A stretch of DNA of 64,000 nucleotides from Lytechinus pictus (lineage: Eukaryota). The notes beneath the pieces are model-generated. The model was not told where the DNA came from and did no database searches. It was given only the letters and a program-made list of their open reading frames with translations. The DNA lies in the NCBI RefSeq assembly GCF_037042905.1, contig NC_087247.1, positions 11,482,148-11,546,147 of the forward strand, given 5' to 3'. A program made the translations under genes and the position numbers. Shown in pieces: positions 58,718 through 61,798 of the stretch; positions within the stretch are counted from its first letter, which is position 1, and each line of letters begins with the position of its first letter.

Positions 58718-59725
58718 TTACAATTCTAAGTTGGAATCGATGACATTTACAGTATCACTTGGCGCTTCTCCATGGAGTATCCTGCACATCTCTTTGCATG
58801 AGTCCACTGTCAAATCAGATAGATACTGACACTGAAGTTGGTCTGATAGAGTGAGTCCGGATTTGTTCTCGACGGATGTCTGCCCGAGCAAGGAATACAG
58901 GGCTATTTTGGTTACGACCTTTGCTTGCTCTGTCATGAGCCACTTTTCTAGTTCTTGGTTCAGTGCCTCGGCTGTGCTTGCATTATCAGTGAATACTGTT
59001 GATGGTGGGCCCCAGAGCAGGCACTGTAAGAGGGCGGCAGCCTGGTGGCAGGTGATCCTGTCCTGGGGATTCTTGGCGAGGAGTTTCGCAGCGATCGTGC
59101 GTAGATCAGCAGAGAGGGACGACTTGACGGGGATGTCGGGAAGGTCATCTGCAGTGTAGTCGGAGATGATCAAGCTCGTCCGGGTGGAGAAAGGGTTGGG
59201 TTGATGGAGGAATTCGTAGACCAGAATCCCTACATCAAACTCGTGGCATTTCTGCTCCAGCTTCGAAGCCACCTCCTTCTCGTCTGCCCTCGTTGGGGAT
59301 ACCACTTCTGCCCCCATCAGGTGGTTGATGACTAGACGGTGTCCTTTGCCGGGAAGTCCACTCTCTGTCAGCAAGAGGTGGTCGAGCTTCAGGCTCTCAA
59401 GGCACATGTGGCGCGACTGAAGCTGGCACAGTCCCTGACACAATTGCAGCAGCATCGAAGCAACATCCCGCTCGTAGACCTCAGGTAGATTTGCATGTTT
59501 CTCGATATTCTGCGAGACATACTCCGCAACGTTCCCCTTTGGTAAGTCATCAACGAAGACCAAGGCTGTCTCTATGGATGCACCTGATTGGGGAGAACTG
59601 CCCCTGGTTTTTCTTTGCTCAAGAAGTGAAGAATCAATGGTCACAGTGTCTCTGGTTGCATGGGACACAGATATAAGGTTGGGCTGAGATGTCATTGATT
59701 TGGTCAGTTCAGCCATCTGAAGCAC
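58718..59725 (-). CDS. Exon encoding the kinase-like (pseudokinase) domain plus a ~100-aa helical C-terminal extension; stop codon at 58718-58720
   Basis: 335-codon ORF. Recognisable protein-kinase C-lobe subdomains are present: a degenerate catalytic loop LQSRHMCLESLKLDHLLL in place of HRDLKPxN, RLVINHLMG in place of the DFG region, DVGILVYEFL (subdomain IX), and LLAKNPQDRITCHQAAALL (subdomain XI). Acceptor candidates (minus sense) are ctcag|gtgcttcag|atggct around plus 59717-59734. It is in phase 0 with the exon ending at 61046. The family assignment (PEAK1/PRAG1-like) rests on my recollection of motif patterns and is not verified. Confidence 0.65.
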   Translation of the reverse strand: MLQMAELTKSMTSQPNLISVSHATRDTVTIDSSLLEQRKTRGSSPQSGASIETALVFVDDLPKGNVAEYVSQNIEKHANLPEVYERDVASMLLQLCQGLCQLQSRHMCLESLKLDHLLLTESGLPGKGHRLVINHLMGAEVVSPTRADEKEVASKLEQKCHEFDVGILVYEFLHQPNPFSTRTSLIISDYTADDLPDIPVKSSLSADLRTIAAKLLAKNPQDRITCHQAAALLQCLLWGPPSTVFTDNASTAEALNQELEKWLMTEQAKVVTKIALYSLLGQTSVENKSGLTLSDQLQCQYLSDLTVDSCKEMCRILHGEAPSDTVNVIDSNLEL

Positions 59726-61045
59726 CTGAGTTGTCTTGCTTGGATCACAACATACCTAGATGCATCAAAAACATGAAAATGAAAAGGAAAATGAAGTTAA
59801 TGAGGTTTATGCCCTTCTTTCTAATTTCAGATAACTGTAGGACAAACTCATCACCTCTATACTCTCTGAAATAGAGAGAAAAAAAAAACCACGTAGATCC
59901 CTACAAGTAAGGTAAGGGCACAAGTTTCTGGATAAAAAAATTAATAAATACTGGCGTGCAAATACCAGATATTCAAAAAGGATACATTCTGGTGAAATAC
60001 TGATCTAAAACAGAAGCAAAGCAGAAGGGGAGCAAAACTATTTGTTCCTAGGTGAAATACCATTCAGAGAATAGATACTAAGTAACTAAAACATATATGA
60101 TTGATTGTATTTGTAAACAATATGATTCTGCAAGCACAAAAAATAACCTGACTCACACAGATATCAAATGATAATATGCACTTAGAAACTGTCATGCTGT
60201 TTTTGACAAACAAGTCGATAAACCTGACATGTAATTCCTCAGCTTGTAACTCCAAATCTCAAATTTCATACAAACAAAATGACATGTGGATGATATTTCA
60301 CACTGGGAGCACTAACAAGAGTACTTATCCAATTCATTTTCTTTCGGTATTTGACCATGATTTGGGTTTGATCAGCTGTAATGTGACCACAGAATCAATG
60401 CCTTGCTGACAAACCTGACCACAAGACTCAGACACGTCTGCTGATCCAAATGAATCAATTAATCTAATTAGCAGGACGGGATTGAATCCGGAAATTACTT
60501 AGTCATGGATATCTTTAGCAGATAGCATTTCAATCAACACATGCACCGAAATAGTAATATTTGCACAATCAATTGGCATCATGACAATATTTATTCCATA
60601 TCTTTTTTCCTGTGTCGGTAAAGAAGGTAATTTCTAGAGATGTACTTGCTTTTCATCTGTAAATTTTCACTGAACTACAACAGGAAAATTTAGTACTGAA
60701 AAATAAAACAACATCAAACAGTACATGATTCCCTCGTTATTTTTGTCGCTATTGCAGAGTTTAAGAAAAATGGTGTACTTATTAATAATAAATCTATAAA
60801 AGAAACCCAATGTGGTCAGGTATAGATAATATATCCACATCAATGAAGTTAACTTCAAAACTCAATGGATAAGATATCACCAAACATCATCAAGGCCAAC
60901 AAAATTATGAACCAAATTCTGAACAGTTAGGTCCATTACAGATTTATTCCATTCTTTTTTTGTAAACTCTTCTTTTTGAAGAAATCATAACTCCATTTAA
61001 GTTTTGATATATTGATATTTTCGAAAGAGACAAAAGTAGAGGCAG

Positions 61046-61798
61046 AGAGACTCACCAGTAAACCTGGAGAAGTGGAAGAGCTTGTTGGATGTGTTACATC
61101 AAAGAATGCAGCTCCTGCTGAACGACACTTAGGGTCTGTTGATGTGATCCGCTCCTTCCAGACCGAATCCCTACACCCTGCCCAGTCCAGTGAAATTGTT
61201 GGTATCGTCCTCGAGAGTTGTGTCAAGGCTTGAAGATGGACAGCATCAACATCATGAAGAAGATTACCCAGACTTGGCTGATTAAGGGATGAACTGTTGT
61301 GAGAATTCAAACTGCATTGAGCATCTGCATCTGCAAAGGATGTCTTTGATCTTTGAGAACTGTCCTCTACTTGGGTCCCTGCATCCTTGAGGACTTTGCC
61401 ATCCAGATCCGCTTGAGGAACCAAAGCCAGGTTTTTATAGTCGCTTCGCAGGACACTGGGAAGCGGGAACTGGGTGTCGATGGATTCATCTTCCGGAGCA
61501 ATGATTCGGACTGGACGCTTCGGGACAACCTTGCCATCGGCATCTACCCGCAGTGGTTCTGACTGTGTGCTCCGGAGAGCGGACTTCAGGGGCTGCGAGG
61601 AACTCAGTGGGATGTCCTCAAACAGCAGTTGCTTCGCACTGGTGGCCTGAACAACATCATCTTCTGTATCAGCATCAGGGGTTGGTTTATCAGGAGTCTT
61701 TGGGGCCATGCGCTTGACGCGAGATGGTAAGTCCTCAAAGCCTGTGGTCCTGTTCCGTTGTCTCCGCCTCGCTGGCTTCTGAGGGGCTATGTTCGCTC
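61046..61798 (-). CDS. Large exon encoding a low-complexity, disordered N-terminal region (S/P/D/Q-rich) of a pseudokinase gene; possible start Met at 61709
   Basis: Continuous 250+ codon ORF on the minus strand (RANIAPQKPARRRQRNRTTGFEDLPSRVKR-MAPKTPDKPTPDADTEDD...SPGLL). The 5' boundary is either an acceptor (ttgttatcatcccaatgcag|gt, minus sense, at plus ~61799) or the ATG at 61709-61707. The 3' boundary is a consensus donor ctg|gtgagt whose GT is at plus 61045-61044. It is in phase 0 with the downstream exon. Confidence 0.6.

Follow-up and report, generated by a model that had tools for sequence, protein, structure and literature searches.

Introduction

The minus strand at one end of a 64,000-nucleotide stretch of Lytechinus pictus DNA (contig NC_087247.1, positions 11,482,148 to 11,546,147; hereafter the window) carries two exons of a gene resembling a protein kinase, and the question arises to which family this gene belongs and whether its product could act as a kinase at all. 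A preliminary description, made from the sequence alone, had proposed a catalytically dead pseudokinase of the PEAK1/PRAG1 type. A review from 2021 repeats the statement of the 2006 sea urchin kinome that sea urchins lack four kinase subfamilies, one of them being NKF3, the PEAK family (PMC7854572).

The region very probably represents the 3′ end, namely the last two coding exons with 595 of about 1,690 codons, of a single echinoid PEAK (NKF3) pseudokinase gene, the protein of which would be a non-catalytic scaffold. The window contains a conserved kinase-fold domain that is under selection and devoid of catalytic residues, flanked by helices like those of the split helical dimerisation (SHED) module and preceded by conserved motifs. 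Adaptor binding, dimerisation and a role in adhesion and migration signaling would be expected by analogy to the vertebrate family. As this locus is joined by two Diadema proteins (XP_072173691 and XP_071500653), NKF3 is present in echinoids and the statement of its absence fails. Within its family the gene is conserved and unremarkable, and does not represent anything new. The consequence is one of annotation and little beyond that, with "3′ end of the echinoid PEAK (NKF3) pseudokinase gene" as a suitable label for the region. In a wider context, sea urchin embryos could possibly serve as a single-gene system for the function of PEAK proteins in cell migration.

Assignment to the PEAK family

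A phmmer comparison of the last coding exon with the sequences of the PDB yielded strong matches to PEAK1 (6BHC, E-value 3e-38) and PRAG1 (6EWX, 2e-35; 5VE6, 2.5e-34) and a weak match to PEAK3 (8DP5, 3e-3). The nearest family outside of the PEAK proteins was PINK1, with an E-value of about 1e-9. When the spliced product was used as query, the alignment to PEAK1 became longer and extended over the exon junction through the N-lobe. Against the Pfam family Pkinase the last exon scored 28.1 bits and thus stayed under the cut-off of 31.7, which is usual for the PEAK family as it is a divergent family of pseudokinases; the first of the two exons matched no family in the Pfam scan. Of the comparisons that the preliminary description had proposed, those with PEAK1 and PRAG1 hence gave a clear answer, and those with Pfam and PEAK3 a sub-threshold and a weak one.

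The predicted structure points in the same direction. An AlphaFold2 model of residues 173–595, calculated as a monomer from an alignment of 23 rows (a second model covers all 595 residues), reached a predicted local distance difference test (pLDDT) score of 83.5 and a predicted template modelling (pTM) score of 0.84. In this model the kinase fold is preceded by one helix (6–27 in the numbering of the model) and followed by three (340–371, 381–392 and 395–406). In a Foldseek search, 6BHC, 5VE6 and 6EWX came first, with template modelling (TM) scores of 0.80–0.81 on the target and 411–419 aligned columns, followed by PEAK3 and then by PINK1. Tribbles, STK40 and STRAD, which had been judged to fit worse, were neither found among the 60 PDB sequences listed of the 69 matched at E-values up to 1 nor among the best 50 fold matches. 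Sequence matches, top folds and the PEAK1-like relatives from starfish and acorn worms (see below) therefore bear out a family assignment that had been made from motif patterns, and support the view that the window product is a pseudokinase of the PEAK/NKF3 family.

Exons and splice sites

Both exons are located on the minus strand, and residues are numbered according to the spliced, 5′-incomplete product of 595 residues. The ORFs (open reading frames) of the preliminary description, 58718–59725 (335 residues) and 60936–61709 (257 residues), are indeed present. Measured from stop to stop, the frames of both exons comprise 345 and 302 codons, with a runner-up of 150 codons in the whole 64 kb, and they are therefore not chance ORFs. 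Splicing of 61807–61056 to 59755–58718 in phase 0 results in an open product.

The proposed clean phase-0 splicing of these two frames thus held, with a junction from CTG/GTGAGT to a polypyrimidine tract and tctag/GTATGT (first exon base 59755), and with the sites kept in a related locus, L001. Two details had to be corrected. The donor had been placed at 61045; the last exon base is 61056 and GTGAGT occupies 61055–61050 (GT at 61055–61054), ten bases away. Likewise, the upstream exon starts neither at the ATG at 61709 nor at 61798, but at 61807, where it is bounded by the acceptor caatgcag/GT (AG at 61809–61808), up to which the frame is open. As the first two exon bases complete a split codon, the preceding intron is in phase 1. 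The 32 residues preceding the ATG at 61709 read TGRANIAPQKPARRRQRNRTTGFEDLPSRVKR and are conserved despite many synonymous changes in their arginine codons, which identifies them as coding sequence.

The penultimate exon encodes about 180 residues with docking motifs that are predicted to be disordered, followed by helix alphaN1 and strands beta1 and beta2. The last exon starts with strand beta3 and encodes the remainder of the pseudokinase domain, followed by the helices alphaJ, alphaK and alphaL and a tail of 17 residues. It had been described as a kinase C-lobe, which it does contain; its start at beta3 lies earlier than that.

This layout is shared by L001 and L002, the contigs of two metagenome ORFs (P0001 and P0002) which were the sole matches of a word-indexed protein search. 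In L001, the acceptor, the donor (ATG/GTGAGT) and the second acceptor (cag/GTTTGCTGTGAT, reading VCCD) are positionally identical to those of the window, and the positions of the acceptor and donor of the penultimate exon are also matched in L002. The nucleotide similarity between the window and L001 is bounded by the exon ends, and an alignment of the joined product to the Diadema protein XP_072173691 crosses the exon junction without a gap.

Orthologues and the length of the gene

Among 1.84 billion representatives, 118 relatives were identified by an exhaustive search with HMMER. The best full-length relative (P0003) is XP_072173691 from Diadema setosum, an "uncharacterized protein" of 1692 residues, followed by an "inactive tyrosine-protein kinase PEAK1-like" from the starfish Patiria miniata, by proteins of a crinoid, two acorn worms and amphioxus, and by vertebrate PEAK1 and PRAG1; one cnidarian protein was also among the relatives. 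According to an earlier report, animals from placozoans to amphioxus have only one PEAK gene (PMC8699254). The pairwise identity between the window, L001 and Diadema is 62–65%. These three share 36–40% with full-length Patiria and 43–44% with L002, which is a shorter fragment covering only the better-conserved part. Judged by these sequences, Diadema XP_072173691 and the "PEAK1-like" genes of starfish and acorn worms are orthologues of the window gene.

BLASTP aligned residues 3–595 of the product in a single colinear high-scoring segment pair with residues 1095–1692 of the Diadema protein (62% identity), from which it follows that no more than the C-terminal 35% of the gene is present in the window. 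The Diadema residues just before the first residue of the window product are ...DEPLYENLG, and L002 contains an open frame of 1,132 codons about 1.2 kb upstream, with a phase-1 GT donor directly after ...QYENT(G). For the missing part, this predicts a single large exon with YxNxG at its end. Some 1,100 residues of the N-terminal part would accordingly be encoded beyond position 64000, and the protein would have about 1,700 residues and be of the PEAK1/PRAG1 type.

Alternatively, the gene might be a short one of about 600 residues in the manner of PEAK3, with its start codon either at 61709 or in a very small exon further upstream, and represent a second paralogue beside a long PEAK gene. Such a protein would resemble human PEAK3 in size, and neither the 2.2 kb upstream in the window nor the 7.2 kb upstream in L001 revealed a large exon. 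However, the exon opens at a phase-1 acceptor, and conservation at the protein level includes the 32 residues upstream of the ATG, as seen in L001, Diadema, starfish, crinoid and acorn worms. In the 1692-residue Diadema protein the same residues are found at positions 1095–1126, right after YENLG, and the donor of the long upstream frame in L002 matches the acceptor in phase. Moreover, the supposed long paralogue, L002, groups with starfish and is 64% identical to Patiria. A short gene thus retains only a slight probability. A related idea, with L001 as a short paralogue beside L002 as a long one, was dropped, as L002 is of the starfish type and the echinoid orthologue has 1692 residues. Since L002 is closest to Patiria, it is not a paralogue but the orthologue of a different animal whose DNA was part of a mixed sample.

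The assembly from which L001 and L002 originate (ENA ERZ26222911) contains low-coverage contigs from at least two echinoderms, with PEAK loci of the echinoid and of the starfish type. Animal DNA of this assembly, from a host or from the environment, enters protein databases as unnamed ORFs of prokaryotic style.

The catalytic site

In the family alignment, the product of the window has lost every canonical catalytic residue. The lysine of beta3 is replaced by valine, HRD by LES, the catalytic asparagine by histidine and DFG by NHL; the glycine loop reads SAGAAF. Most chordates have a lysine (YAVKIC), xH(R/C)DLxLENLLL and (S/T/A)NF at the matching positions. The degenerate readings of HRD and DFG that had been pointed out beforehand are borne out by the alignment, in which CLESLKLDHLLL is placed against H(R/C)DLxLENLLL and LVINHLMG against L(I/V)(S)NF(S)x. 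The former stretch is unchanged in Diadema and L001, and the residues of all catalytic motifs are identical across the three echinoid sequences.

These losses differ in their distribution. The aspartate of DFG is lost family-wide, and the loss of the beta3 lysine is common to echinoderms and acorn worms. Only echinoderms have lost the HRD histidine, and the HRD aspartate is also replaced in two acorn worms (HGE and HGA), which retain the histidine and the asparagine of the catalytic loop. Judging from these alignments, the degradation of the active site has gone further in echinoderm PEAKs than in those of vertebrates.

With every canonical catalytic residue replaced, a phosphate transfer is not possible, and the echinoid PEAK protein, as read from its sequence, cannot be a conventional phosphotransferase. 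The earlier prediction of a catalytically dead product is thereby strengthened, the more so as all replacements reside inside one continuous exon. As vertebrate PRAG1 and PEAK1 fail to bind nucleotide (PMC5660093), the loss of the motifs suggests that the echinoid domain would not bind nucleotide either.

It could be argued that the protein is nevertheless an active or atypically active kinase and that its odd motifs result from a wrong exon model, especially as the fold is intact and well predicted and relatives of the PINK1 family are active. Yet, the motifs lie inside an uninterrupted exon of 345 codons and are identical in L001 and in the annotated Diadema protein, four independent catalytic positions are replaced together with the glycine loop, and vertebrate family members do not bind nucleotide (PMC5660093). 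The probability of an active kinase is consequently very slight.

Selection

Between the window and L001, the proportions of non-synonymous (pN) and synonymous (pS) differences are 0.21–0.26 and 0.70–0.77 per site, respectively; the synonymous sites are saturated, and the synonymous divergence (dS) of the last exon could not be estimated. The low pN against a saturated pS indicates purifying selection on the gene. That the window holds a decaying pseudogene or a gene fragment, for which the presence of only a part of the gene might speak, has a negligible probability, as both exons are open, canonical splice sites are conserved in position, the non-synonymous divergence amounts to about one third of the saturated synonymous divergence and the strongest conservation falls on structural core residues.

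Most vertebrate PEAK1 and PRAG1 orthologues keep the beta3 lysine and HRD, which the echinoderm sequences do not. That these residues are lost while the SHED helices and docking motifs are under purifying selection speaks for scaffolding, and not a residual catalysis, as the conserved function of the family.

SHED helices and the echinoid tail

In vertebrate PEAK1, PRAG1 and PEAK3, the helices alphaN1 and alphaJ to alphaL form the SHED module. The preliminary description had noted a helical extension of about 100 residues at the C-terminus and had suggested a structure prediction as a check for a SHED-like module. The models contain this extension as three helices, and together with alphaN1, which precedes the domain, they match the SHED module in the monomer model. 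The C-terminal helices align up to residue 430 of the 438-residue PEAK1 chain in 6BHC. In alphaN1, Leu194 is invariant in an alignment of 11 sequences, and V186 and L197 align with L955 and L966 of PRAG1, which are residues of its dimer core; ties between the pseudokinase domain and the SHED helices have been described there as well (PMC5660093). Also conserved are other SHED-linked residues, namely the LLWGP motif, a tryptophan in alphaJ and an aspartate and a cysteine in alphaK. By analogy to the vertebrate proteins, echinoid PEAK would be expected to dimerise via alphaN1 and alphaJ to alphaL.

The tail of 17 residues behind alphaL occurs only in the window, Diadema and L001, and is lacking in the starfish, crinoid, acorn worm, amphioxus and vertebrate relatives. 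Its last residues are VIDSNLEL in the window, VIDTGLDL in Diadema and LIDSEIDL in L001, and thus always end with a hydrophobic residue, (D/E) and Leu. The tail may be a lineage-specific docking motif.

The disordered region and its putative docking motifs

In the model of all 595 residues, residues 1–179 have pLDDT scores below 50 and no secondary structure, and alphaN1 comes next. About 70 of the 250 residues of the penultimate exon belong to the SHED module and the N-lobe. The disordered N-terminus of about 250 residues that had been proposed is thus borne out by the model for about 180 of them; the region is, however, located in the middle of the protein and not at its N-terminus.

Several motifs in this region are conserved from echinoids to acorn worms, namely PxKPxRR..RNxTTGFE(D/N)LPS, K(K/R)xAPxxP, PLKSA(L/M)(K/R), PKRPVR(I/V)(I/V)AP and YxN(L/I/V). 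The element PKRPVR(I/V)(I/V)AP is nearly invariant in Diadema, Patiria, Antedon, Ptychodera and Saccoglossus, is embedded in an otherwise poorly conserved disordered stretch, and reads PRRPVRVVSP in amphioxus (Branchiostoma). At the position of SDYKNLA, five ambulacrarian sequences align with a YxN[LIV], and, judging from the consensus, this tyrosine may be phosphorylated (pY) and bound by SH2 domains of the Grb2 type.

The stretch PQKPARRRQRNRTTGFEDLPS follows the pattern PxxPx(R/K)-x3-R-x-x-T-x-(G/P), the spacing of which equals that of the vertebrate PEAK "tandem site". This site, PPLPKKxxxRANTEP, binds the N-terminal SH3 domain (N-SH3) of Crk and, once phosphorylated, 14-3-3 (PMC10279719). 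The match is not exact, as the window has PQKPAR in comparison to the Crk consensus PxLPxK, and the proline at position +2 of the 14-3-3 site is a glycine. For these two reasons adaptor binding is something that we infer by reasoning, with APQKPARRRQRNR(pT)TGFEDL (pT, phosphothreonine) as the putative docking stretch for Crk N-SH3 and 14-3-3. Furthermore, the stretch after the upstream YxN site, YENLG-ASRAKITPQKP, resembles YSNLGQSRANMIPPKQP of vertebrate PEAK1.

These similarities allow for a broader, rather doubtful but possible, interpretation. The cassette YxNxG-PxxPx(R/K)-x3-RxxTx(G/P), the vertebrate counterpart of which is a Grb2/Crk SH2 site followed by a "tandem switch" for Crk-SH3 and 14-3-3, might be ancestral to deuterostomes rather than specific for vertebrates; echinoids, with four catalytic residues lost, might possess the most completely "dead" PEAK scaffold known; and the tail that they have added might provide a novel site for docking, such as a ligand of the PDZ type.

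A model for echinoid PEAK

Taken together, a long disordered region with docking motifs of the SH2/SH3 type would lead into a kinase-fold domain which would be clamped between helix alphaN1 and the helices alphaJ, alphaK and alphaL. Echinoid PEAK would then most likely be a dimer that recruits adaptor proteins, and could provide a platform to which SH2/SH3 adaptors, together with their kinases, are recruited where adhesion and cytoskeletal remodelling take place.

Four points weigh against this picture of a long, dimeric PEAK scaffold. The 5′ two-thirds of the gene are outside of the window, and the full-length architecture is deduced from Diadema and L002. Comparisons of the window with L001 and L002 (blastn and tblastx), a low-stringency tblastx of the two upstream regions and a search for the pattern of YxNxG and a donor all failed to reveal the upstream exon in the adjoining 2.2 kb of the window and 7.2 kb of L001. 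Trp1382 in alphaK of PRAG1, which is required for its dimerisation (PMC5660093), is a glutamine in the window product. Finally, alphaN1 is of low confidence in the monomer model.

Features of the locus and the remaining window

The coordinates of all features of the gene are compiled in Table 1.

Table 1. Features of the PEAK gene in the window (residue numbers refer to the 595-residue product)
Feature	Position	Strand	Description
Penultimate coding exon	61056..61807	-	752 nucleotides, 250 residues; phase-1 acceptor, donor CTG/GTGAGT
Proline and RxxT stretch PQKPARRRQRNRTTGFEDLPS	61722..61784	-	PxxPxR proline motif, then RxRxxT / RxxTxG; kept in echinoids, starfish, crinoid and acorn worms
PKRPVRIIAPE	61491..61523	-	Strongly conserved linear motif in all Ambulacraria examined
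SDYKNLA	61425..61445	-	YxN motif fitting the Grb2-type SH2 consensus pYxN
Helix alphaN1 of the SHED module, SLGNLLHDVDAVHLQALTQLSRT	61206..61274	-	Helix in both models; residues 180–200 in the 595-residue model
Intron	59756..61055	-	1,300 nucleotides, GT...AG, phase 0; no similarity to L001 inside
Last coding exon	58718..59755	-	345 codons and stop TAA at 58720–58718
Position of the beta3 (VAIK) Lys	59753..59755	-	Codon GTA (Val), first codon of the last exon; GLLVCC aligns with YAVKIC
Catalytic-loop equivalent CLESLKLDHLLL	59369..59404	-	HRD His and Asp and catalytic Asn all replaced
LVINHLMG	59312..59335	-	Strand beta8 and NHL at the DFG position; (S/T/A)NF in the majority of the other family members
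Helices alphaJ, alphaK, alphaL	58772..58972	-	Residues 512–540, 553–564 and 567–578; C-terminal half of the SHED module
Echinoid-specific C-terminal tail GEAPSDTVNVIDSNLEL	58721..58771	-	17 residues, predicted to be disordered (pLDDT below 50)

The window is AT-rich, with a GC content of about 0.33–0.42, and has very few long open frames, as is the case in animal genomes. In the 58 kb downstream of the gene (1–58700), no other convincing coding frames were seen, although small exons could escape detection. A serine-run ORF at 53340–53759 was rejected as a gene, as it is a product of an (ATC)n repeat at 53369–53425; further simple repeats are (ATAG)n at 3110–3247 and a poly-A run of 48 bases at 51427–51474. 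Amid otherwise non-coding sequence, a tRNA-Val with the anticodon CAC is predicted at 19038–19109 on the plus strand by ARAGORN and Rfam (RF00005, 42.8 bits), which may be a functional gene or the head of a tRNA-derived repeat, and it was the only hit of the Rfam scan of the window.

Comparison with known systems

PINK1, the nearest family outside of the PEAK proteins and the outgroup in PEAK trees (PMC8699254), is, unlike the echinoid protein, an active Ser/Thr kinase with intact motifs and without a SHED module. Human PEAK3 (C19orf35, 8DP5) belongs to the same family as the echinoid protein and shares its fold of SHED module and pseudokinase domain (Foldseek E-value 1e-11). The similarity in sequence is weak, however, and PEAK3 has a short N-terminal region, unlike the echinoid gene with its long architecture. 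In the PEAK3-type architecture about 130 residues precede alphaN1, and the protein has about 470–600 residues.

Human and mouse PRAG1 (SgK223, Pragmin, PEAK2; 5VE6 and 6EWX) are, with E-values around 1e-35, closer in sequence and match in fold with TM scores of 0.80–0.81 on the target. Their residues W1330, P1332, W1354, D1381 and C1385 are conserved in the echinoid protein, and the positions of L955 and L966 are hydrophobic. In contrast, the echinoid protein keeps neither HRD nor the lysine corresponding to K1024, both of which are present in PRAG1, and next to the exchange of W1382 it has an isoleucine at the position of F1366.

Human PEAK1 (SgK269, 6BHC) is the best match in both sequence and fold. 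The two proteins share a kinase fold flanked by alphaN1 and alphaJ to alphaL, the lack of the DFG aspartate, LLWGP, the tryptophan of alphaJ and the aspartate and cysteine of alphaK, and the arrangement YxNLG-SRAxI-PxKxPR precedes the domain in the Diadema orthologue as well as in vertebrate PEAK1 orthologues. Still, their identity is only about 27–28%. The aligned vertebrate PEAK1 orthologues keep the beta3 lysine and HCD...N and have long insertions in the N-lobe and in the loops before beta8, whereas in the echinoid protein the catalytic positions are occupied by Val, LES and His, the loops are shorter and a tail of 17 residues is added.

Within the Ambulacraria, BLASTP identifies the same gene with the same docking motifs in Patiria miniata (XP_038058341, 35% identity) and Ptychodera flava (XP_070537368, 29%), both without the echinoid tail. 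Diadema represents a different echinoid lineage from that of the window; its proteins from D. setosum (XP_072173691) and D. antillarum (XP_071500653, 1692 residues) are orthologues with identical catalytic replacements and the same type of tail.

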